Positions 4,493-43,964 of a stretch of DNA of 64,000 nt are shown here, piece after piece; the first letter of the stretch is position 1; every line of letters begins with the position of its first letter. The notes beneath the pieces were generated by a model that worked only from the letters and a program-made list of their open reading frames with translations, made no database searches and was not told where the DNA came from. Made by a program: the position numbers and the translations under genes. Source of the DNA: an uncultured Methanosarcinales archaeon (GTDB lineage: Archaea > Nanobdellota > Nanobdellia > Woesearchaeales > GW2011-AR9). Location of the stretch: positions 1-64,000 of the forward strand of contig CAYFMJ010000001.1 of assembly GCA_964344235.1 (NCBI GenBank), in the 5' to 3' direction.

Positions 4493-5284
4493 ATGTGGGT
4501 GCATAATCTCGATCCAGTACTGGTGCCTCTCGGCCCCGTAGAAATTAGGTGGTATGGTTTAGTATATGTATTTGGTTTTCTTCTGAGTATCTGGTGGCTG
4601 CAATATATGCGGAAGCAAGGTAAGTTAGACCTAACATCTGATGAAATTTGGGATTTTATGCTATATCTAATTATTGGAGTATTAGTAGGTGCACGATTGT
4701 TTATGATTTTTTGGCAACCAGCCGATTTTCTGGCGAAACCATGGAATTTATTACGCCTCTGGGAAGGGGGGATGAGTTTCCACGGTGGTTTCGTAGGAGT
4801 TGTAGCAGCAGCGTGGTGGTATTCTAAGAAGAAAAAACTGAATTTTTGGAAGTTAGCGGATATGGTGTCTGTGCCAGCAATTTTTGCTTTGGCGTTGGGG
4901 AGGATTGCCAACTTTATTAATGGAGAGTTAGTGGGAAGAGTGTGGAATGGCCAGTGGTGTGTTGTGTTTCCTGATTTTGGGGAAGCATGTCGGCATCCGA
5001 GTACATTATATGCAGCAGGGAAGCGATTTATAGTATTTGGATGGTTAGTGTGGTTGAGTGTTTGGAAAGAGTTTAAGCCAGGTTTCATTTTCTGGAATTT
5101 CGTGATGTGGGAAGGATTAGGGAGAATTATTGTTGATTTTTATAGGGAAAATGCTGTATTTGCAGGATTTAGCTTAGGGCAATGGTTTAGTGTAATTATG
5201 GTAATTGTGGCCGTTATTGTCTTCAGAAAGCATTATGTAGAAGATTGGAAAAAGATATTTAAAAGAGAACGTAAATTAGGGTAA
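4493..5284 (+). CDS. lgt: Prolipoprotein diacylglyceryl transferase
   Basis: IRWYG, GARL, GGMSFHGG, GRIANFINGELVGR, RHPSTLY motifs; multiple TM segments. Confidence 0.93.
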   Translation: MWVHNLDPVLVPLGPVEIRWYGLVYVFGFLLSIWWLQYMRKQGKLDLTSDEIWDFMLYLIIGVLVGARLFMIFWQPADFLAKPWNLLRLWEGGMSFHGGFVGVVAAAWWYSKKKKLNFWKLADMVSVPAIFALALGRIANFINGELVGRVWNGQWCVVFPDFGEACRHPSTLYAAGKRFIVFGWLVWLSVWKEFKPGFIFWNFVMWEGLGRIIVDFYRENAVFAGFSLGQWFSVIMVIVAVIVFRKHYVEDWKKIFKRERKLG

Positions 5285-15988: not shown

Positions 15989-17269
15989 TTAGTAATATGT
16001 TGGGTCTTCACCCTCGTCGTCTCTTCGTAGTCTTGAGAAGCCAATGATCAAGCCGATCACAACTAATAGGACCACTAAAACGATTAAGGCAATCTCTAAA
16101 CCGTCACGTAAGCTCTGGTTGCTTCCGCTCTGGGTTCCAGGAACAACGTTTGCTTCTAACATAACAGTTTGGAGTTCTTCTCCATCTGCGCTAACTGTTA
16201 CAGCAACTGCTTGTGCAGCTGCAGGTGTACCAGCGTTTGGAGTTACGTCAACAGTAACAATTTTGTGTTGACCTGGTCCTAGAACAACCAGTGCATCACT
16301 CTTTGAAACGCTTGCCCAGTCACCAGCTACAACATCAACGGTGTATGCTTCTGTACTGGTTCCAGTGTTCATTAGAGCAACAAAGTAACTTGCTGTAGCT
16401 CCCGTAAGAACGCTCTGCGTTTGAGGGCCAACTTGCAAAGTTAACTCTGAAACTTCTTGGAACATTTCGTTCTCAACAACCTGGATTTGGTATGTTTTTG
16501 TAACAGTTTCGTGGAAATTGTCGTATTGAGCAGAGACAACTAATTCGTATGTTCCTGCAGCAGTGTTACTTGGAATCTGTAAAGCCATTTCAGGAACATC
16601 TTCGAAGTCAAAGTTACCGTCATCATCTGTGTTTACTTCATCTACAATTTCAAACGCGCTAACGCCTAATTGTGGAATGGAAACGGATACTTTAACATCT
16701 TCTTCATCCTTCTCACCGAAGTTCTCTAGTAATACTGTGGTGAACAAGTGTCGACCAGCTTTTACTGTGGAACTTGGTGCAAAAGAAACATCTGCGATGT
16801 CTACTGCGTGACGCTGAGCTTCAACGGAAAGCTGAACAACTGTTTCGAATGCTGCTGTGTTTTTATCCATAACACGCACACGTAACCAGTAGTTCTCATC
16901 GTTTTCCAACTCATGCGGTAAATCTAAGTCTAAACTTACTTTCTTTGTGGTACCTGCTTTAATGTTGAACAATTCTGTGGTTGCTTCTAACTCATCAAAG
17001 TCGTTGTATTCGAAACCGCTAATTTCGATTTCAACTTCAAGGTCTTCAAGAGTTTCAGAACCTAAGTTCTCCAATGCTAGGTCAACTTCAATTGTTTCGC
17101 CTTCTTCTACAGCGAAAATTTCATCACCATCACCTGCTCCGAAGTTAACGTCGTGTTCGTTAACTTCTAACTCTGCGATGAACAAATCGTTACCATCTAA
17201 AGCGCTTACTAAGGAAAAGCTCAAAACGCTAAAGACAAACAATGCCATCAAAATGGTTAGTTTTCTCAT
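15989..17269 (-). CDS. Secreted Ig-like/CARDB-type surface protein with a C-terminal membrane anchor (putative S-layer-associated)
   Basis: Signal peptide; three beta-sandwich-like domains (VLLENFGEKDEEDVKVSVSIP; VALMNTGTSTEAYTV); TM followed by RLRR. Confidence 0.7.
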   Translation of the reverse strand: MRKLTILMALFVFSVLSFSLVSALDGNDLFIAELEVNEHDVNFGAGDGDEIFAVEEGETIEVDLALENLGSETLEDLEVEIEISGFEYNDFDELEATTELFNIKAGTTKKVSLDLDLPHELENDENYWLRVRVMDKNTAAFETVVQLSVEAQRHAVDIADVSFAPSSTVKAGRHLFTTVLLENFGEKDEEDVKVSVSIPQLGVSAFEIVDEVNTDDDGNFDFEDVPEMALQIPSNTAAGTYELVVSAQYDNFHETVTKTYQIQVVENEMFQEVSELTLQVGPQTQSVLTGATASYFVALMNTGTSTEAYTVDVVAGDWASVSKSDALVVLGPGQHKIVTVDVTPNAGTPAAAQAVAVTVSADGEELQTVMLEANVVPGTQSGSNQSLRDGLEIALIVLVVLLVVIGLIIGFSRLRRDDEGEDPTYY

Positions 17270-17431: not shown

Positions 17432-20400
17432 TTATTGAACAGTTATGATCCGATGTGCTGTTTCATGGATCTGTGAGTTCTTTGCTGTGACTTTAATAAC
17501 GTAATCTCCGGAGGGTGCGTAATCGGGTATCTGGAGAGGGATTACGCGAGTTTCTCCTTCTCCATCATCTAAATTAAACTCACCTGTTGAGTAATAATAT
17601 TCTAAATCGTAGATGAATACTGTAAAACGTACATCTTTAAGGTCAACATTACCGTTATTCTCAACTCTTGTAACGATTGTTGTAGATTCTCCTGGATAGA
17701 CCACTTCAGGAGTTGGATGAGCGTAGACAATTTCAATGCCTTTCTTAGGTTTCTTGATAATATGGAATTCGTCGTTGTCGAAAGGGTTTTCACAACCGGG
17801 GTCTTCTAAGTCTAGGAAACCATCAAAGTCGTTGTCTATACCGTCCTGGCAGGCAGTGGTAGTGTCTCCTTCATTATTGTCTAATGGGTTGTAGTTGCCT
17901 GATTCGTCGTAACAACCAGGATCTTTAGCATCTGTAAGACCATCATTATCATTGTCTAGGTTGTCGGAGCAGACTGTTGCACCAACAACTATGATAATAT
18001 CTTCTAAGATAGGGGTGTTGATAATTGAGTCTGTTACTGAGACCCTAAGGTTATGTGTGCCAATTTGATCGACAGCCGGGGCCCAGGTGAATTCTTGGTT
18101 ATGGGTTGTTGCCCCGGTTGGAAGAGGGAGGTTAAAATCATATTTCAGGATATCTTCGCTGTCTCCATCAATTGCTTCAATAGTAAAAGTTAACGTATCT
18201 CCTAAGCTAACGGAATAGGCTGTTTCACTTACAAACTGAGGAATTTGGTTTACATCAAATACAGTTACTTCAAACTCTTCCTGCACGCGGTTTCCAGCAT
18301 TATCCATTACGGCAATTACGAGAGTAAATCCTTCTTCTAAACTAGGATGTTGAACAAATGTAAATAATGGTTTTAGTTGAATTGTGTAAGTGTTGTCTCC
18401 GTTATCAATTAAATTTACTGCATTACCCGCAATTGATTCCAAGTTCATCGTTATCGAATCTGGTGAAGCCACTTCTACAATTAATAGATCATCTTCAGGA
18501 TCATCAATTGTAAAATCAATTTCTAATAACTCTCCTTCGTTCACTGTTTGCGGTTTAATTGGTTCAATTGTTGGATCTTCGTTGATTACAGGATCATCAG
18601 ATTCATCATCGTCATGTGAAGATTCACAGCCGGGGTCGTTGGGGAAGTCGATTAACCAATCAGCATCATTATCCAGACCATCCTCGCATTGATTTAGGAT
18701 AATAACTGGTTCATCGGACTCATCATTATCCTGAGCGTTGTAATTGCCATCCTCGTCAAGACACCCTTCATCTAATTCATCAATGTTGCCATCACCGTCA
18801 TTGTCAATCCCATCCTGACATTGTGCTGCTGGAAGTTCTTCATCATCATCCTGTGGGCTGTCACAGCTGAAATCATCTGGGAAGTCAACGAAACCGTCGC
18901 CATCATTATCGATACCGTCTTGACATTGCGTTGTTGCGTCTGATTCATCATCATCAAGAGGGTCATAATTACCTTCTTCATCATAACAACCAGGGTCAGC
19001 AGCATTATTTAGGCCATCGCCATCATTGTCGATGTCATCGGAACATTCTGCAACTTCAACAACAATATTTGTTTCGTTATCATCTTCAGGAGACTCACAA
19101 CCCGCATCAGCAGGGAAATCAATAAAACCATCAGCGTCATTATCTACACCATCAGAACAGTAAGCGACAGCATTTGCAAATTCTAAGTTTGTTGGAGAGG
19201 TAACAGGAAGTGTTACTTCAAAGAAGCCATCGGAAGGTGCCATTTGAATGTAGCCTTCTGGGATGATTTCCCGTACAATATACGTTCCTGGCCCTAAGTC
19301 TGGAAAGAGGAACGCGCCGTTGCTGTCAGTAATAGTAAAGTATTCATCCGCATCAAGCATTTCATTGTTATTTTCATCAATGTAAATGGTAATTCCCTCA
19401 AGAAGAATATCATCCCCCAGTATTACGGAACCGCCAAGTCCGAAGAAATCAATCAGCTTGTTACTATTTTCAAAGATTTGTGCAGCTGGATCAATATCTT
19501 GTAACGGGCCGAGGGTTGCTGTAGCGCCAACACCAAATGCCCGTACGTTGTTTATCTTTGATTGTAATTCTATCGCTTCATCAAAATAGTTAAAATTTAA
19601 TGGTGCCCCGTCAGAGAGGAAAATAAGGTTACTATTTTCGCTTTCCAAGCTCTCAGAACCATATATTTCAAGTGCCTTCTGTAGTGCAGCTTCATAATCT
19701 GTGCTACCACCGGACGCAAGAGTTCCCAGTGCTTCCACAATATCTAATTCCCCATTGCCATCCGTATCATCGCCGGCAAGAGAAGTGATTTGAATACCGG
19801 CAGTGCCTGGTTGGGTGTCAACCTCTGTTGCGAAATCGTTAAAGGATATAATAGCAATCGTGGCAGAGTCGCCAAAGCCTTCAGCAACAATATGTTCTGT
19901 TAGTGCAATATACGCTGCAATCTCTGCATCAAGAACAGTGTTCACTGCACCATCTCCGTTCATATCTGGAACTGGGTCGCCAGCGAAAGGACTTATAGTA
20001 CTAGAAGAGGTGTCAATAACATACAGGATTGTTGGAGCGCCGGTAACGGAAGTGATTTCACAGATGCCATCTCTATTTGTGTCTTCACATTTAATTCCAG
20101 TTATCTCAAATGATGGAGGTAGAGGATTGAATTCATCATTATCGAGAGGATCGTAGAAGCCCCCTTCTTCATTACATCCTGGATCGTCAATGTCCACTAA
20201 GCCATCCCCGTCGTTGTCAATTCCGTCAGAACATTCAAAGGAAATGTCATCCGATTCATCGTTGTCAAAAGGGTTGTAGTTTCCGGTTTCTTCATAACAA
20301 CCAAAATCCTCTTCATCAATATGGCCATCGAAATCATTGTCTAAGTTATCGGAACATTGTGGTAATAAATCGTTGAACTCATTGTCATCTTCTGGCGAAT

Positions 20401-22072
20401 CGCAACCGGGATCGTCCATATCGACGAGTGTATCGCCATCATTGTCAATGCCATCTGAACAAGCGGTTGCAAGAACTACAATTGTTACATCTTGCGTTGC
20501 TACGTCAATCTCGTCAGTTGCAACAAACGTAACTTCGTGAGTTCCAATTTGATCGGATGTTGGGGTCCACGTGAATTCTGGGGTGTTGAATGAAGCGCCT
20601 GTTGGGAGAGGTTCTTCCCAGACAACTTTGACAGTGTCCTCAGCATCAGCATCAGTAACATCAACATCAAATTGTAGAAGTGTTCCCACTGGAATTTCAT
20701 AATAGTCACCCGAAGTGAATTCAGGAAGCTGGTTCACGTCTAGAACGGTGTAATCAAATGTCTGTTTCACTTTATGTGTTTCATCTTCTGCATAGACAAT
20801 TAACGTTGTTGATTTTTTTGTATCTGGGTGTTGAACGTACGTGTAATCTGGGGCGAAGGTAAATTGCCCAGTGCCATCGTTATTGTCAATGAATAAAACA
20901 TCTGTAGGAAGTGGAAGGTGGAGGCAGGTGTTCGTACCACTAATGCAACTATAAGTGTATGCAGAAAGTGTTACGGAATCAGAGTCCTCGTCTTCTGCGG
21001 TGATAGAAAGTACAGCTGTTTCGCCCTCATTGATTGTAATGTCATCTAATGGATCCCCACCGTTAATTATTGGACTCTGTTTCTCTTCGATTTTGAGAAT
21101 AACTCCGTAGGAGAAAGAGTCTTTACCATCGGTTACTGTAATGAATAAAGGGTAGATCCCTGCCGCGGTAGGTGTTCCGTAAATAAGTGCATTATCACTT
21201 CCTTCCCCAAGATCAGTAAATTGTACTCCTGGTGGAAGTTTGGTAATGATGGAATCAACAGAAAACTCTAAAGGATCGTTATCTGCATCAATACCAATAA
21301 CATCGATTGCTAATAGTTCGTTAACTGGTCTTTCAAACACAGGGAATGGTAGAAGTGCAAATAAGATGCTGTCTGCATCGGGGCTTAAGTCAAATGTTGG
21401 CGGGTGGTTTTCGTCTGAAGGTTCAAGAACGGTAATCGTTATCGTTTCTTCATCCGTGCCACCATTACCATCGTCTACTGTAATTGTGATTGTATATGTC
21501 CCCGGTTCTGTTGGTGTCCAGGAAAACTCTCCAGTGTCTTCATCGAAGGACATACCAGGTTCAGTTGGTTCTACTTCGTATGTTAATGTATCTCCATCTT
21601 CATCAGTTGCGGTTACTTGGAACTCAAGCGTTTGGTCTGCTTCAATTTCTTTATCACTAATAGGATCTAAAACAGGCGGGGAGTTGAGGGGAGTTACAAC
21701 CAAGGTAATTTCCTCTTGATCCACGTCTGTTGATGTGGTTGCAGTGATTTGGACAGTGTATGTTCCTTCCAGATCGTCGGTGTTTATTGTAAATAAGTGA
21801 TCATAGAAGAAATCGGAATAACTATTTATGTCAGCAAACGTTTGGATAATAGTTGTTCCTTCTAACAACACAACATCTATGTCCAGTGGGGGATTAGTAG
21901 TGTCGGCTTCTGCTTCGAAAAGAACGTTCGTGCCAGCTTCCACGGTTAGAGTTGTGGAACCAGGAGCATCAACCCACCAGATAAACACCGCAACATCATC
22001 TGCTGCTGCAGGTGTAGTGAATAGTGCAAGTACTAGTAGAACTGTTAGTATAATGTTGTATTGTTTTTTCAT
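17432..22072 (-). CDS. Giant Ca-binding adhesin, 1546 aa: cadherin/PKD-like domains, 10 Cys-Asp repeats, vWA, SdrD-B, CARDB
   Basis: Signal peptide; NxPP...FTWTP cadherin-like motifs; CxDGIDNDGDG repeats; VIDTSSS MIDAS; ITIYIDENNN...TDSNGAFLFPDLGPGTYIVRE. Confidence 0.85.
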   Translation of the reverse strand: MKKQYNIILTVLLVLALFTTPAAADDVAVFIWWVDAPGSTTLTVEAGTNVLFEAEADTTNPPLDIDVVLLEGTTIIQTFADINSYSDFFYDHLFTINTDDLEGTYTVQITATTSTDVDQEEITLVVTPLNSPPVLDPISDKEIEADQTLEFQVTATDEDGDTLTYEVEPTEPGMSFDEDTGEFSWTPTEPGTYTITITVDDGNGGTDEETITITVLEPSDENHPPTFDLSPDADSILFALLPFPVFERPVNELLAIDVIGIDADNDPLEFSVDSIITKLPPGVQFTDLGEGSDNALIYGTPTAAGIYPLFITVTDGKDSFSYGVILKIEEKQSPIINGGDPLDDITINEGETAVLSITAEDEDSDSVTLSAYTYSCISGTNTCLHLPLPTDVLFIDNNDGTGQFTFAPDYTYVQHPDTKKSTTLIVYAEDETHKVKQTFDYTVLDVNQLPEFTSGDYYEIPVGTLLQFDVDVTDADAEDTVKVVWEEPLPTGASFNTPEFTWTPTSDQIGTHEVTFVATDEIDVATQDVTIVVLATACSDGIDNDGDTLVDMDDPGCDSPEDDNEFNDLLPQCSDNLDNDFDGHIDEEDFGCYEETGNYNPFDNDESDDISFECSDGIDNDGDGLVDIDDPGCNEEGGFYDPLDNDEFNPLPPSFEITGIKCEDTNRDGICEITSVTGAPTILYVIDTSSSTISPFAGDPVPDMNGDGAVNTVLDAEIAAYIALTEHIVAEGFGDSATIAIISFNDFATEVDTQPGTAGIQITSLAGDDTDGNGELDIVEALGTLASGGSTDYEAALQKALEIYGSESLESENSNLIFLSDGAPLNFNYFDEAIELQSKINNVRAFGVGATATLGPLQDIDPAAQIFENSNKLIDFFGLGGSVILGDDILLEGITIYIDENNNEMLDADEYFTITDSNGAFLFPDLGPGTYIVREIIPEGYIQMAPSDGFFEVTLPVTSPTNLEFANAVAYCSDGVDNDADGFIDFPADAGCESPEDDNETNIVVEVAECSDDIDNDGDGLNNAADPGCYDEEGNYDPLDDDESDATTQCQDGIDNDGDGFVDFPDDFSCDSPQDDDEELPAAQCQDGIDNDGDGNIDELDEGCLDEDGNYNAQDNDESDEPVIILNQCEDGLDNDADWLIDFPNDPGCESSHDDDESDDPVINEDPTIEPIKPQTVNEGELLEIDFTIDDPEDDLLIVEVASPDSITMNLESIAGNAVNLIDNGDNTYTIQLKPLFTFVQHPSLEEGFTLVIAVMDNAGNRVQEEFEVTVFDVNQIPQFVSETAYSVSLGDTLTFTIEAIDGDSEDILKYDFNLPLPTGATTHNQEFTWAPAVDQIGTHNLRVSVTDSIINTPILEDIIIVVGATVCSDNLDNDNDGLTDAKDPGCYDESGNYNPLDNNEGDTTTACQDGIDNDFDGFLDLEDPGCENPFDNDEFHIIKKPKKGIEIVYAHPTPEVVYPGESTTIVTRVENNGNVDLKDVRFTVFIYDLEYYYSTGEFNLDDGEGETRVIPLQIPDYAPSGDYVIKVTAKNSQIHETAHRIITVQ
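17770..20470 (-). repeat. Ten C-x-D-x-x-D-N-D-x-D-(G)...D-x-(G)-C intragenic repeats in short and long variants
   Basis: Counted in the translation in three clusters (3+5+2). Confidence 0.85.
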
Positions 22073-22090: not shown

Positions 22091-23728
22091 TTATCGTTCT
22101 GGTTGTGTTAATGGATCGTAATTTGGATCATCGGTTCTGAACTCCCGAGGGACATAAGCATCATTGCTGCCAGCTTCACGTGCTGCGTCTCTACGGTATC
22201 TTCGAATTGCTTCCGACTCAAAGGGCGTTCCTTCAGTTGTTTCAGGAGTAGGTGTTGGTTGCGGCGATTCTTGTGGAGAGGGAGTAGTATACGCCGGTGT
22301 CGCAGGAGTTGCTCCCTGGTCTGGCACAATATACTGTTCGGTTGGCCTCGGTTGAATCTCTTCTGGAGCCACATAGACAGGACTTGGATCGACTTCTATA
22401 CCATAATCATCTGGAAGAGGGTGAAGTTGATTATAAATGTCTGGTTCTGCTGTTGATTCGGGTGTTGTTGCATCGGCCCCCGTTTTGAATTCGAAGAGGG
22501 TTCCAAAACTAACAGTAAGAACCCAAGGCGATTGACCAATAGCTTCACGAGCACCAGAATAACCAGCACCGAGTCTTCCAGCGAGGTCAATGCGCGCATG
22601 GTCAGTTTCAGCGATGGTGCCGTTAATTCCTACTTCCAGATTTAAATTACCGTAAACAACAGTTCGGCTATCTTCGGTTATCGTTGGGCCGAGTACTTTT
22701 GGTCCACCTTCCCCGTCAGGAAGGAGCGTTGGGGCATAATGATCAAGAACCTCCGGGATTTCAGAGTGAACGGAAACTGTGTGTTCTACTGAAGTTGTTT
22801 CCGTAACTCGAGTTGGATTGATCCCTCCTCTTAGACGAGCGAAAATGTCAAAGTCTTCAAAGTCATAGTGCAGTTGTGCCACTAGGTCTAATCCTCCTAC
22901 GAAACGATGAAGTGAATCTCTTTCATTCGTTTCACCACTTCGTAAATCGTAGGTGCCGTCAAGATTTTGTTCTGCGGTAATTGGGTTGATGATAAGGTTC
23001 CCACTTGAAGGGTCAGCGAAATAGAAACCGCCTCTAGCCCCTCCACCAAAACTAATGCCCCACGGAGTTTCATCGATGTTTGGGATATCAAGTAAGTAGG
23101 TAGCAGCTAGCGACCCAAGACCATCTTTGCTCACAAAAGGAGTTTCAAAGAGTAATCCAACTTCTAGTAAATGGCGGAGGTCAACCTTTTCTGTGTCGGT
23201 TGGCCGTTCCTCAAGCTCGCGGATTCTCTGTTGTGCTGCTTCCAAATTAGCTGCTAGCTGAGTTTTAGCTTCTTCGCAGTCTGTTTTTTCTGCGTGGCAC
23301 TGTCGTGCTTTATCTTCACATCCTGAAAGTAGAGTGTCTACTTCTTCCCTCGTTACGGAATCTTGGTCTAATGTAGAGTCAAGGATGTAACATAATTTAT
23401 CCGAAGCACAACCTTTGACGAGCTTATCGGTATATTGGTCCCACGGCATCCCGCCATCGGGATTAATATTTGCGCCATTTTCAGCTAAGATTCTTGCTTC
23501 ACTTTCTCTAAGACAAATACCCAGGTTACCACCATGTTCGCTTGCGAATTCATCTGACTCGCAATATGCTTTTACTCTTACTTTTGGTTGTTTCTTTTGT
23601 TTTTTGGTTTCGCCTTCAGTCACTAACTCCATCTGGTCTGATTTGCCAGGAGGTTGAGCATATGAGGGATTAGTTAAAGAAATTCCTGCAGCTGCAATTA
23701 TAGCAGCTAGTGTGAGCCTTTTTATCAT
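22091..23728 (-). CDS. Secreted protein: Cys-rich N-domain, coiled coil, predicted 8-stranded beta-barrel, Pro/Thr-rich tail
   Basis: Signal peptide MIKRLTLAAIIAAAGISLTNPSYA; eight amphipathic strands ending in WVLTVSFGTLFEF; no TM helix after the signal peptide. Confidence 0.6.
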   Translation of the reverse strand: MIKRLTLAAIIAAAGISLTNPSYAQPPGKSDQMELVTEGETKKQKKQPKVRVKAYCESDEFASEHGGNLGICLRESEARILAENGANINPDGGMPWDQYTDKLVKGCASDKLCYILDSTLDQDSVTREEVDTLLSGCEDKARQCHAEKTDCEEAKTQLAANLEAAQQRIRELEERPTDTEKVDLRHLLEVGLLFETPFVSKDGLGSLAATYLLDIPNIDETPWGISFGGGARGGFYFADPSSGNLIINPITAEQNLDGTYDLRSGETNERDSLHRFVGGLDLVAQLHYDFEDFDIFARLRGGINPTRVTETTSVEHTVSVHSEIPEVLDHYAPTLLPDGEGGPKVLGPTITEDSRTVVYGNLNLEVGINGTIAETDHARIDLAGRLGAGYSGAREAIGQSPWVLTVSFGTLFEFKTGADATTPESTAEPDIYNQLHPLPDDYGIEVDPSPVYVAPEEIQPRPTEQYIVPDQGATPATPAYTTPSPQESPQPTPTPETTEGTPFESEAIRRYRRDAAREAGSNDAYVPREFRTDDPNYDPLTQPER

Positions 23729-24774
23729 TGTTCATCACCACAATTAATTGGATATAATCTAAAGTTTAAAGGGTTCTCCGACCGATCTAGCCACGTTAAA
23801 AGGAGGTCTACAACCCCTGGCTGGTCTTCGCTACCGTACATTAAAGATGGCCTAGCTCCATCGAAAACGGTTGTTCTATAGGTTGCTTCCAACTGGTCCC
23901 TTAAAGATTTTGGTTGGTAAGAAGCAACTTTGTCTCCCCTTCTGGGATGGATGATAATATTACTCGTTCCACAGGTAAATGCTTCCAAGAGGCTTTGATA
24001 ATGAGCAATATCATCTTTATCAAACCCATCGAGCACTGAAGCGAGTTTGTCGTATTTCAACGGCGTTCCTTGAAGAGAGTAGCCTTCTAATGGGTGGATA
24101 TCCGCGGAGAATACTAAATCTGTTGGTTCTTCATCGACTGGGGGAGGGGGGCATAAATCGAATTCTGGTTGTAACTCGCCATTGAAACATTGGTAAAGAA
24201 TATCCGGTTCTGCTGATGGTTCTGGACAATCATAGCGGTCAGAAACGATACTGTCGTCAAGACATTGGTATTGTGTGATAACTATGGGTTCTTCAGAGTT
24301 AGGTGTTTCTCCTGGAAGTAAAGTGAAATCTGGGAGGCTAGGACATAGTTCTCTGTCGTAGACCCAACTACCATCAAGACATTCAAACTGGGTTGTTTCA
24401 TTCGGGTCAACTGTTTGAACAACTGCCGCTGGCTCAGTTCTTTGTGGTTCATATGAAGCAACGAAATGCGTAACTGCGCCAAGAGCAAATCCAACACCCA
24501 ACATACCAAGTGCCCAGCCTGCTGTTGGTCGTGTACGTGTTGGAGGGGCTTGATGTATTTGTACTGGTTCTATAACCTCAGCTTCATCTTCGTCAGGGAC
24601 AACCGCTTCTACTTCTTCCAATTGAACCCTATAAGTCTCACACTGTTCTCGGAGTTGGGCGATCGTTCCTTCTTGATCCTCAATAGCCCGTTCCAAACCT
24701 TTTGCTTTTGCTCGAAGATCAACATTCCTTCTACGAAGCCTATCAATCTCTCCGTCTCTAGAATCTTTACTCAT
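23725..24774 (-). CDS. Single-pass membrane protein with an N-terminal coiled coil and three disulfide mini-repeats
   Basis: TM GWALGMLGVGFALGAV; repeats FECLDGS..ELCP, YQCLDDS..YDCP, YQCFNGE..DLCP; ATGA overlap with the next gene. Confidence 0.65.
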   Translation of the reverse strand: MSKDSRDGEIDRLRRRNVDLRAKAKGLERAIEDQEGTIAQLREQCETYRVQLEEVEAVVPDEDEAEVIEPVQIHQAPPTRTRPTAGWALGMLGVGFALGAVTHFVASYEPQRTEPAAVVQTVDPNETTQFECLDGSWVYDRELCPSLPDFTLLPGETPNSEEPIVITQYQCLDDSIVSDRYDCPEPSAEPDILYQCFNGELQPEFDLCPPPPVDEEPTDLVFSADIHPLEGYSLQGTPLKYDKLASVLDGFDKDDIAHYQSLLEAFTCGTSNIIIHPRRGDKVASYQPKSLRDQLEATYRTTVFDGARPSLMYGSEDQPGVVDLLLTWLDRSENPLNFRLYPINCGDEQ

Positions 24775-24863
24775 TGTAAATATAGTTCCCCCATCCACTC
24801 CGATGACAAAGTCTTATATAAAGTTTTTGCAAGGGTTGTTAACGAAGAGTAGTAACTAAGTGG

Positions 24864-26033
24864 TTAGAAAAATGTGCTAAAGATTTGATAGATGATGCCA
24901 ACAACGAAAAGAGCTATGAGAAACATGCCAACAAACTTCGGGGTTTTCAGGGAATATTCCGGTTTTCGTTCTCCCAGTTTTTTTGCTTTCCAGTATATTA
25001 ACACGATTAAAATTGCATCCAAACCACCTGCGATGGCCCCAGTAACACCAAGCACGGAAATGAACGTTGTAAGGTTGAAGAGAACAATGATGAGGGGGAA
25101 GGAAAACGTTAACAGGATTGCAGCCCAGTGTGGAAAATCATAATCGTATCTATATGCATCCACTAATGCTAATCCTAATGCTAGGAAAGAGGTGAGCATG
25201 GTAATGATGGCGAGGAGGTTCGCGAAAAGTCCTAGGATCGGTTGGGAATATATACTAAGAGCAATTGTTGCTATTCGTTCGTTAGGGAGGAGTGCTTCAA
25301 ATTGTGGTAAACCCACTAAACCAACGATGATAAGTGAGAAGATCATATAGAGAAAGATTGGGATGACAGAGCCAATGATGATAGCTTTCTTCATTCTGTG
25401 TTTTTGATTCCCTAACACTTGTGCCATCTCTGGCAGAGCAGGCGAAGCCATAAAAGCGAAGAGAATAACACCATAGGGTAGAAAGAAGTGTAATGGATCA
25501 AACGAAGTGAAGTTCGTGAGAGAAATTTGGTCGAATGAAAAAATTCCAAGAGCGAGGACAACGAGGAAGAGGAGAGAGATGAGAATTAATTCCGCTTTGC
25601 CCGTTGCTTTGACCCCTTTGTAAATGATGAACACCATGACGGCAAAGAAAATGAGTGTGTAGAGGAGCGGTGTTCCAACACCAAGTACTGCATGAATTGT
25701 TGCTCCCTCACCAATTAGGTATGCTGTTAAGGCACCGTAGATGTTGATGAAGAGTGCTATTAGCATAACAACTTTGCCTTTTGCACCGAGGTATTTTTCT
25801 GCATAGCCAGTGAGTTGATGTTTCCCCTTTGTTCTAAGAACAATCTCTCCCGCGAAGAGGTTTAGAAAGATGAATGCTATTCCAATAAGGAGGATAATAA
25901 AGAAACCATAAAGAACACCTGCTTTGGCAATGACGTAAGGGATTCCTAGGATGCCAGCACCAACTATTGTACCAATCAACGTGGTGATGGCCATCAAGAA
26001 TTTATTCTGTAGGAACGGTACCTCTTTTTGCAT
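24864..26033 (-). CDS. Aromatic amino-acid permease (Trp/Tyr, HAAAP family)
   Basis: TLIGTIVGAGILGIPY, YGALTAYL, PYGVILFAF; ~11 TMs. Confidence 0.88.
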   Translation of the reverse strand: MQKEVPFLQNKFLMAITTLIGTIVGAGILGIPYVIAKAGVLYGFFIILLIGIAFIFLNLFAGEIVLRTKGKHQLTGYAEKYLGAKGKVVMLIALFINIYGALTAYLIGEGATIHAVLGVGTPLLYTLIFFAVMVFIIYKGVKATGKAELILISLLFLVVLALGIFSFDQISLTNFTSFDPLHFFLPYGVILFAFMASPALPEMAQVLGNQKHRMKKAIIIGSVIPIFLYMIFSLIIVGLVGLPQFEALLPNERIATIALSIYSQPILGLFANLLAIITMLTSFLALGLALVDAYRYDYDFPHWAAILLTFSFPLIIVLFNLTTFISVLGVTGAIAGGLDAILIVLIYWKAKKLGERKPEYSLKTPKFVGMFLIALFVVGIIYQIFSTFF

Positions 26034-26090: not shown

Positions 26091-26187
26091 CCCACTCGAC
26101 AGGTATGAGTGAATCTTATAAGTCTGCAATACTCATTTTATCTCTCTTTGTTTTATTCCGGGAGCAAACAAAGAGGTGATAAAAATG
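26091..26187 (+). promoter_or_regulatory. Conserved LAGLIDADG leader cassette, copy 1 (CCCACTnGACA, TATA box, SD-sequestering hairpin)
   Basis: CCCACTCGACA 26091-26101; CTTATAA 26115-26121; stem CTCTTTGTTT 26144-26153 / AAACAAAGAG 26166-26175; GAGGTGAT-N4-ATG. Confidence 0.75.
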
Positions 26188-26829
26188 AAATTTAATGAAG
26201 ATTTGGCAGAGATCGTAGGGATTATGCTCGGCGATGGAGGTCTCCATCTGAACAAATCAAACAAATATAACTTAACTATTTCATCTGATAAAAAAGAGTT
26301 AGAGTACCTCGAATCTGTGAAATCATTGTTTACTGATTATTTCAAAAGTTATACATTTAGTATTTGGGAGTGTAAAGAGAAATTGTCGCTTGGCCATACC
26401 TCGGTGTTCGTGGGTGAGCAACTAATTAAGGCTGGCTTAAAGCATGGCAATAAGGTCAACAACAAAGTGCAGGTGCCAACATGGATTTTCTCAAATGAGC
26501 AGTTTTTAATCCGGTTGGTGAGGGGCATGTTTGATACAGATGGTTGTATCTACCGCAAATATGATCAATTTGCACAAATTCAGTTTAAATTCGGGTGTTT
26601 TGAAACTACAAAATCCCTTCACGATGTAATAAAAATTTTGAATTTTAATCCAACAGTAATTCAGAGGGAATTCAATAAATCTAAAGGATTCTATGCGTGG
26701 AAGTTCTACCTATGTCGACAAAGTGAGATTGATTCATTTTTTCAATCTATTAAGCCACGAAATCCAAAGCATGTTGAGAGATATAACAAAATAAGGAGTG
26801 GGGACGCTGGGATTCGAACCCAGATCTAA
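26185..26829 (+). CDS. Free-standing two-motif LAGLIDADG homing endonuclease
   Basis: LAEIVGIMLGDGG and RLVRGMFDTDGCI; VPTWI linker; the 3' end runs antisense into tRNA-Trp. Confidence 0.9.
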   Translation: MKFNEDLAEIVGIMLGDGGLHLNKSNKYNLTISSDKKELEYLESVKSLFTDYFKSYTFSIWECKEKLSLGHTSVFVGEQLIKAGLKHGNKVNNKVQVPTWIFSNEQFLIRLVRGMFDTDGCIYRKYDQFAQIQFKFGCFETTKSLHDVIKILNFNPTVIQREFNKSKGFYAWKFYLCRQSEIDSFFQSIKPRNPKHVERYNKIRSGDAGIRTQI

Positions 26830-43188: not shown

Positions 43189-43539
43189 ATGGGGTTTTTT
43201 AGTAAACTGAAGTTTTGGAAGAAGAAAGATTCATTAGATTTTGATTCTCTAGCAAGTAAAGAGTTCTCTGGGAGTGCGTTCCCAGATCAAGAGATGTTGG
43301 GGAAAGCTCCAGAGTTTAACGATCCGATGGTTGGAAGACGGAGTGAATCTTTGGGGCAGTACACACCGCCAACAAGTGCATTACCGCAGCAGGGAAGTGT
43401 GGGAGAAGGGAGAGATTTAGAGTTGATTAGCAGTAAGCTAGACACGATTAAAGCACTTCTGACATCGATGGAACAACGGTTAGCGAACGTGGAAAAGAGC
43501 CTCGGCTCACAACAGAAGCCACCGCAGCGATTATGGTAG
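43189..43539 (+). CDS. Hypothetical protein with a C-terminal coiled coil
   Basis: MGFFSKLKFWKK; DLELISSKLDTIKALLTSMEQRLANVE; overlaps the lspA start. Confidence 0.65.
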   Translation: MGFFSKLKFWKKKDSLDFDSLASKEFSGSAFPDQEMLGKAPEFNDPMVGRRSESLGQYTPPTSALPQQGSVGEGRDLELISSKLDTIKALLTSMEQRLANVEKSLGSQQKPPQRLW

Positions 43540-43964
43540 CAAAGCAGTATTGGAAATTATTCTGGGGAATTGTATTTAGTGTTATTTTTATTGATCAAGT
43601 GACGAAGTATTTTGTTGCTCTGCATAAACCAACGATTGATTGGGGTTTGCTGAGGATTGAGTATATCACCAATACGGGAGCAGGGTTTGGTATTCTACAA
43701 GGACAAGTGTTCTGGTTGGCTGTAGTTTCATTTATTGTAGCTGTTGGCATTATTGCGTTCTATAAGAAAATTCCACAAGAGAAATGGACGCAAGTGTTCA
43801 TGGGATTATTTCTCGGAGGAGTTATTGGGAATTTAATTGATAGGGTGTTGCGGGGCTATGTTATTGATTTTGTGAATTTGACATTCTGGCCAGCGTTTAA
43901 TGCGGCAGATGTAGCATTAAGTGTGGCAGTTGTTGGGTTGCTGATAGTGACGTGGAAGAATTAA
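43533..43964 (+). CDS. lspA: Lipoprotein signal peptidase II
   Basis: DQVTK, NTGAGFG, GGVIGNLIDR, VIDF, PAFNAAD with both catalytic Asp present. Confidence 0.93.
   Translation: MVAKQYWKLFWGIVFSVIFIDQVTKYFVALHKPTIDWGLLRIEYITNTGAGFGILQGQVFWLAVVSFIVAVGIIAFYKKIPQEKWTQVFMGLFLGGVIGNLIDRVLRGYVIDFVNLTFWPAFNAADVALSVAVVGLLIVTWKN

Follow-up and report, generated by a model that had tools for sequence, protein, structure and literature searches.

The DNA analysed here is a stretch of 64,000 nucleotides (contig CAYFMJ010000001.1, positions 1 to 64,000; hereafter the window) from an uncultured woesearchaeal archaeon. We discuss a gene on its reverse strand, P0001 (the target), whose product carries a domain of eight amphipathic beta strands resembling those of small bacterial outer-membrane proteins (OMPs). 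The ATG start of the target overlaps the stop codon of the gene upstream (ATGA), and an adhesin gene begins 18 bases past its own stop. The window sits in a 413-kb contig amid archaeal genes (ABCE1, RNA cyclase, geranylgeranyl reductase), and the genome (1.19 Mb in 37 contigs, 96% complete) has an archaeal small-subunit ribosomal RNA and an ABCE1 that is 76% identical to those of metagenome-assembled genomes of 'Candidatus Woesearchaeota'. Compared with the rest of this genome, the GC content at third codon positions of the target (GC3, 0.315) lies at the 26th percentile and its codon score at the 14th. Both values are native; the gene is thus not a contaminant, and recent horizontal transfer was rejected on the same grounds. 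The same protein is also present on a second assembly. The coordinates of the features discussed are collected in Table 1.

Table 1. Features of the window discussed in the text (aa, amino acids; TM, transmembrane; ORF, open reading frame)
Feature	Position	Strand	Basis
Lgt, bacterial-type (PF01790, 219.5 bits)	4493-5284	+	
ig426, 426 aa: signal peptide, CARDB/NPCBM_assoc immunoglobulin (Ig)-like domains, C-terminal TM anchor	15989-17269	-	Pfam
Cassette gene downstream of target, anchorless adhesin of 1546 aa (He_PIG/PKD, VWA), C-terminal CARDB-like domain conserved	17432-22072	-	Pfam
P0001 (target), 545-aa stalked protein with putative barrel	22091-23728	-	ORF and translation
Target, C-terminal tail, 131 aa, Pro/Thr/Glu-rich, basic stretch at end	22094-22486	-	composition
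Target, beta domain, residues 186-414, eight amphipathic strands, about 229 aa	22487-23173	-	strand pattern
Target, head (about residues 25-150, 7 Cys) followed by helical stalk (about residues 151-181)	23186-23656	-	family profile, BLASTP
Target, Sec-type signal peptide, residues 1-24, ending ..SYA|Q	23657-23728	-	judged by eye
Cassette gene upstream of target, 357 aa: coiled coil at N-terminus, single TM helix (about residues 96-114), ectodomain with Cys	23725-24798	-	
Trp/Tyr-type amino-acid permease, conserved upstream boundary of cassette	24864-26033	-	Pfam
LspA, bacterial-type (PF01252, 106.6 bits)	43533-43964	+	

The target is a real, exported, modular surface protein, made up of a signal peptide, a Cys-containing head, a helical stalk, the beta domain and a tail. 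The N-terminal signal peptide is its sole strongly hydrophobic 19-residue window; no TM helix was found by the hydrophobicity of such windows, and the protein lacks a lipobox. The head and stalk region gives weak coiled-coil matches in Pfam. Because the Pro/Thr-rich tail of 131 residues comes after it, the putative barrel is not C-terminal.

All eight strands quoted in a preliminary description of the window, made from its letters, are present in the beta domain. They span 10-15 residues, with every second position hydrophobic 5-8 times in a row, and the beta hydrophobic moment of the region exceeds that of shuffled versions (P 0.004-0.01; 2000 shuffles). By a 10-residue strand score, which favours segments having one hydrophobic face and one face of small or polar residues, the region contains nine strands versus 2.8 +/- 1.4 in shuffled sequences, none of 5000 shuffles reaching nine. 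On the strands as first quoted, the hydrophobic face comprises 54 positions, of which 81% are hydrophobic, 28% aromatic and none charged, while the other face is 22% Gly and 27% charged and has no Lys. The connectors measure 8, 7, 38, 2, 54, 5 and 10 residues. The three on the presumed turn side (T1-T3) are the three shortest, an arrangement for which we calculate a chance of 1 in 35; the long loops are L2 (38 residues) and L3 (54 residues), and the loops between strands 1 and 2 and between strands 7 and 8 are short (8 and 10 residues). Weak extra strands scoring inside L2 and L3 prompted a 10- or 12-stranded reading, which was set aside; eight strands were retained because the compact orthologues described below shorten exactly these two loops.

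The last strand holds the sequence SFGTLFEF (residues 407-414), which matches the consensus of the bacterial beta-signal, polar-x-G-x-x-aromatic-x-aromatic (PMC10945584), in an internal position. The preliminary description had the strands, the Sec signal peptide, the lack of a TM helix and the alternation of short turns with long loops right. Its remark that the last strand ends in F-x-F is borne out by this motif, with the qualification that a barrel of the usual kind would end there and the target runs on into its tail.

The strand score was calibrated on proteins of known type. Over 260 residues the target gives 10 strands and a score of 44.0, the seven E. coli OMPs examined (OmpA, OmpX, OmpW, PagP, OmpF, Tsx, OmpT) give 4-9 strands and scores of 19-40, and the soluble eight-stranded barrels Blc and YceI give one and four strands, respectively. 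Among 1254 E. coli K-12 ORFs without alpha-helical TM segments, taken from the first 2.0 Mb, 23 have at least eight strands, and Pfam or annotation identifies at least 19 of the 23 as outer-membrane barrels. Of the 998 ORFs without TM helices in its own genome, the target comes first. The next best (glycyl-tRNA synthetase, metallo-beta-lactamase, aldolase and beta-helix surface proteins) are plainly not barrels, and no Ig-rich, TM-helix-free surface protein of this genome attains the score of the target.

The target belongs to a cassette in which the gene order is permease, variable one-TM protein, stalked barrel protein (the "slot" protein), anchorless He_PIG adhesin and TM-anchored Ig protein (ig426). 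Orthologues of ig426, with 42-58% identity, are found in 104 of the 113 genomes of the family, and the region upstream was taken from 19 of these 104. Every one of the 19 loci contains the permease, a slot protein of 403-588 residues with a signal peptide and no TM helix, and the adhesin orthologue, the latter directly downstream of the slot gene (E 1e-12 to 1e-121); the variable one-TM protein is absent in three. The permease position in relatives is taken by an ORF with 10-13 TM segments. The same order recurs in four extended loci (L230, L231, L232 and L233) that were picked through matches to the Pfam family OMP_b-brl (PF13505), which we take to belong to the outer-membrane beta-barrel clan 'MBB'. 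L233, from genome G018 of the same family, reads geranylgeranyl reductase, ig426 orthologue (52.6% identity), He_PIG adhesin, a 499-residue slot protein, a one-TM protein overlapping it by 4 bases, an 11-TM permease and RNA cyclase; its slot protein matches OMP_b-brl with 28.6 bits and ends ..IKYHF. An adhesin homologue lies directly downstream, on the same strand, of the PF13505-matching gene in 7 of 26 short loci, compared with none of 80 control loci and 0.4% of random windows of the target's own genome. The target had at first been read as an orphan in a strain-specific island, a view that was dropped after this analysis of synteny.

Some features of the neighbouring genes may be recorded here. 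The one-TM protein, both in the window and at the same position in loci L265-L284, is hypervariable (150-860 residues) and is often coupled to the barrel gene by its start or stop codon; that of the window has no detectable homology to the proteins at the same position in relatives. The anchorless adhesins range from about 600 to 1600 residues, and all retain a C-terminal CARDB-like domain of about 105 residues ending ..YR..TV (17435-17750, reverse strand, in the window). This domain shows a mean column identity of 37% (alignment A3) and resembles domains of the adjoining anchored Ig protein; judging from that resemblance, it may be the docking end of the adhesin. Between the cassette permease and the RNA cyclase gene lies an ORF with weak Pfam matches to LAGLIDADG-type endonucleases (26176-26829, forward strand), which adjoins the intron-bearing tRNA pointed out in the preliminary description.

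Membership of the target in the slot family was examined with profiles. Twelve slot proteins form one similarity cluster. A family profile built from 14 slot proteins, with the target left out, finds the target with an E value of 6.3e-6 in a set of 23 proteins, and places it first among the 1235 ORFs of its own genome (E 3.4e-4; next best 0.023). Profile positions 3-197 align to target residues 2-182, a stretch that includes the helical stalk and the conserved Cys positions as well as the signal peptide with its ..YAQ end; the cleavage motif ..AYAQ is common to the orthologues in alignment A1. BLASTP of the target against the orthologues of genomes G032 and G018 gives E values of 0.002-0.003, together with a weak colinear match within the barrel. 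In A1 the strands of the target are colinear with the barrels of the orthologues, and F414 falls on their C-terminal Phe. The other rows of this alignment stop at the barrel's final strand or within about 9 residues of it, and none of the 17 orthologues in it has a counterpart of the 131-residue tail. The target thus departs from the slot-family pattern in not ending at its last strand, and it is this new tail that makes its beta-signal-like motif internal. Taken from profile and gene order, the target is a fast-evolving orthologue of a cassette slot gene conserved throughout its woesearchaeal family. What is new in it is a divergence so great that only synteny and the N-terminal profile link it to that family.

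The orthologues display the features of OMP barrels more openly. An aromatic residue is the last residue in 16 of 22 slot proteins versus 7.7% of the ORFs of the target's own genome (P 7e-14). Typical slot proteins end ..GYKF, ..TYRF, ..GVRF or ..GSRF, a classic kind of ending in bacterial outer-membrane proteins, for which the consensus is LGLGYRF (PMC10629564). The slot proteins of genomes G010 and G026, which are outside A1, have no beta-signal-like end. When 18 barrel domains were compared with Pfam, seven matched OMP-barrel families (five OMP_b-brl, best E 6.6e-6; one DUF3575; one Phenol_MetA_deg), and every other Pfam family matched one member only. The strand columns are filled in all orthologues and the turns stay short, while L2 and L3 range over 21-49 residues. 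The compact domains span about 168-193 residues, including some 25 upstream of the barrel, which is close to the size of an eight-stranded OMP barrel.

Weak-to-moderate matches to OMP_b-brl are found in 17 of 301 genomes of the order and in 9 of 113 of the family, 3 of the 113 being over the cut-off. A Pfam-wide scan of ten such proteins returned OMP_b-brl as the top family in seven, and the additional weak matches were few and mostly to other outer-membrane-barrel families. The proteins are dissimilar to one another and to the target, from which we conclude that the class evolves fast. One of them, in genome G125 of the same order (L203:1132-2355, reverse strand), has a signal peptide, a Lys-rich stalk, an OMP_b-brl-like barrel and a Pro/Thr tail. 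As this gene lies in a closed, single-contig genome of 0.8 Mb, such genes are not due to bin contamination. In genome G040, two adjacent barrel-like ORFs of 270 and 306 residues, each with 10 strands, precede an adhesin gene (L229:6822-7634 and L229:7671-8591, both forward strand); by their strand counts they look like tandem barrel genes.

Direct searches with the target itself returned little. Phmmer against 1.84 billion representatives and a word-index search each found the target only, and tblastn in 60 relatives found no homologue; a word-index search with alignment A1 again gave the target only, low-complexity words having probably swamped it. The target showed no OMP_b-brl match even at E 10 (the curated cut-off is 28.7 bits), and neither OmpA_membrane nor OmpA_C appeared in hmmscan of the whole protein or its parts. 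The A2 profile found nothing significant among PDB sequences, and two small orthologues had no match there. The protein-language-model neighbours of residues 178-418, which we treat as a lead only, are all bacterial clusters, namely DUF3575, DUF6850 and OMP_b-brl (0.91-0.93); lipocalins are not among them.

From the strand pattern, its calibration and the features of the orthologues we think it reasonably probable that the beta domain is a membrane-type barrel. Several observations weigh against this. The sequence pattern by itself cannot fix whether the hydrophobic face points outward. The strand score is unspecific, for a beta-helix surface protein of the same genome has 11 strands and an E. 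coli autotransporter passenger fragment has 10, and published sequence-only barrel predictors yield 2.7-5.3% false positives (PMC10629564). The target, whole or in parts, has no match in Pfam, NCBIfam or PDB sequences. The pLDDT values (predicted local distance difference test) from AlphaFold without an alignment, 34.6 over the entire protein and 30.5 over residues 178-418, are too low to use. In the alignment, orthologue columns have a mean hydropathy of +1.4 under the hydrophobic face of the target versus -1.05 under its other face, an agreement that is partly forced by the aligner. A barrel-only orthologue profile, made without the target, misses the target barrel in its own proteome (E 0.57, rank 4). 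What is shown of homology is thus confined to the N-terminal half and to genomic position; at the level of the barrel it rests on position, colinearity and pattern, not on score. Omp85 (PF01103) was not found in the target's own genome, nor over the cut-off in any of 114 genomes of the family, and we know of no second membrane in Woesearchaeota.

Much of this would suit a beta domain that is water-soluble, whether a beta-sandwich, a jelly roll or a lipocalin- or YceI-like barrel, with the hydrophobic face forming a core or a lipid pocket; on this reading the target would be an ordinary part of the adhesin cassette, secreted or associated with the S-layer. Alternation alone does not say which of the two faces is buried, the target matches no OMP family and escapes the barrel-only profile, no Omp85 was found in a group of archaea not known to have an outer membrane, and sequence-only predictors of barrels give false positives. 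Such a domain, however, would hardly be expected to have long strands with 5-8 consecutive hydrophobic alternate positions and a polar face so rich in Gly and free of Lys. The soluble barrels Blc and YceI, and the TM-free, Ig-rich surface proteins of the same genome, fall below the target in the strand score. The orthologues end at G-x-x-aromatic-x-Phe, seven of 18 match families of the OMP-barrel clan, and the language-model neighbours are OMP clusters, not lipocalins. On balance we regard a soluble domain as rather unlikely. The preliminary description had likened the protein to OmpA, OmpW and PagP; a putative OmpA/OmpX-type topology is favoured by the strand pattern, the Phe termini of the orthologues and the OMP_b-brl matches of some of them.

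A membrane-type barrel in this position would fold as a small up-and-down structure of eight strands, as in OmpA, OmpX and the OMP_b-brl proteins, with lipid-facing hydrophobic residues and aromatic ends on the outside and a Gly- and charge-rich lumen inside. After Sec export it may insert into a lipid layer without an Omp85 machine; small bacterial barrels can insert into lipid unaided in vitro. Because the number of strands is even, head, stalk and tail would all remain at the side of entry, with L2 and L3, the variable loops, emerging on the far side. We envisage the barrel as the lipid-embedded foot of an adhesion module, in a presumed partnership with the adhesin. The membrane most likely to receive it would be that of the host cell to which a DPANN-type archaeon attaches, the archaeon's own envelope being the alternative. 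It is possible, and we suggest it tentatively, that this DPANN lineage keeps Omp85-independent, OMP-type barrels that insert into the host membrane, where the adhesin and anchor proteins of the cassette would make up an attachment organelle with the barrel as its foot, and perhaps as its pore or lipid conduit.

The preliminary description had also considered a pore or anchor in a second membrane of the archaeon, as part of a bacteria-like envelope toolkit that includes Lgt and LspA. A barrel in a true outer membrane of its own, acting as a porin or an OmpA-like tether in a diderm lineage, would agree with the OMP-like pattern and the beta-signal-like termini kept across the family, and with the bacterial-type Lgt and LspA, which are present and lineage-wide. 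Double membranes have been reported for some other archaea (PMC8871954). The search for other barrels that had been recommended came back empty: no secretin, TolC-type or autotransporter family was found in the genome, the autotransporter beta-domain PF03797 had no match there at E 10, and no second barrel was detected by strand score, the A2 profile finding the target alone. In bacteria that contain such barrels, these make up at least 0.27% of the proteome (PMC10629564), and here a genome that is 96% complete offers a single candidate. Together with the failure to find Omp85, these results make a bacteria-like outer membrane with its usual set of proteins unlikely. The gene, moreover, sits in an adhesin cassette and not among genes of envelope biogenesis, and we consider a barrel in the archaeon's own outer membrane improbable.

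As for the toolkit, both enzymes are indeed encoded in the window, and Lgt occurs in 55 of 61 related genomes and in none of four archaeal control genomes; according to a paper of 2025, bacterial Lgt and Lsp had no identified homologues in archaea (PMC12462473). Since Lgt and the barrel cassette are both lineage-wide, their co-occurrence holds at the level of the lineage. Nothing observed connects the two in function, the target itself lacking a lipobox.

That the ORF is not a functional gene, or is a rapidly drifting orphan whose composition happens to yield the pattern, we hold to be very improbable: the direct searches indeed returned no homologue, but 545 codons stay open in a genome of 40% GC with native GC3 and codon use, the start is coupled to the upstream gene, a positional orthologue exists in every family locus examined, the family profile matches at E 3.4e-4, and no shuffle among 5000 of equal composition shows the pattern.

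Textbooks treat membrane beta-barrels as markers of bacterial outer membranes and of organelles descended from these, and a machine of the Omp85 family is generally held necessary for their assembly. Neither such barrels nor the machinery for inserting them are known from archaea. A family conserved in archaea that follows this sequence grammar, and for which no Omp85 was found, raises the questions of which lipid layer receives it and what reads its beta-signal-like end, as well as that of its origin, by acquisition from bacteria or independently. Such archaea presumably live in attachment to other cells; the barrel, being hard-wired to an adhesin cassette, therefore offers a concrete candidate, and one that can be cloned, for what physically joins symbiont and host. 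If it does insert into a host membrane, archaea would provide membrane beta-barrels with a third setting, after bacterial outer membranes and organelles.

In the literature searched we found no paper on such barrels in Woesearchaeota. The closest remark concerns PopA and the eight-stranded, oligomeric, 'lipid-trapping' porin-like superfamilies, with mention of a possible distant archaeal relative in Altiarchaeales (PMC12228718). Likened by description only, these resemble the target as small-barrel surface proteins of an attacking or attaching cell. Among archaeal proteins, a further comparison is Ihomp1 (Imp1227), a small alpha-helical pore protein and not a beta-barrel. As the main outer-membrane protein of Ignicoccus hospitalis (PMC4243693), it resides in the outer lipid layer of an archaeon; it differs from the target in belonging to an unrelated lineage and context.

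The slot proteins share with type V secretion systems (autotransporters, and trimeric ones such as YadA) a signal peptide, a head, a helical stalk and a C-terminal barrel, in most orthologues with a terminal Phe, and a context of adhesion. They differ in that PF03797 is not matched, the adhesin is a separate gene, no barrel assembly machinery (BAM) or translocation and assembly module (TAM) was found, and the slot barrel has about 145-230 residues. Such a size suits eight strands, and not the 12 of autotransporters or the four per subunit of the trimeric proteins.

The closest counterparts are the small bacterial OMPs (the N-terminal domain of OmpA, OmpX/Ail, OmpW, PagP and the OMP_b-brl proteins of PF13505). 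These differ from the target in their setting, for the latter is found in an archaeon in which Omp85 was not detected, is part of an adhesin cassette, and has a Cys-containing head and a stalk in front of the barrel. In profile searches its orthologues match PF13505 weakly or just over the cut-off, and the target itself has no match to a hidden Markov model. In organization, however, the two are alike: both have a Sec signal peptide, a meander of eight long, amphipathic strands whose turns are short on one side and whose loops are long and variable on the opposite one, aromatic residues at the strand ends, a second face rich in Gly and charge and a last strand of the beta-signal type, and in OmpA, as in the target, the barrel is followed by a Pro-rich segment.

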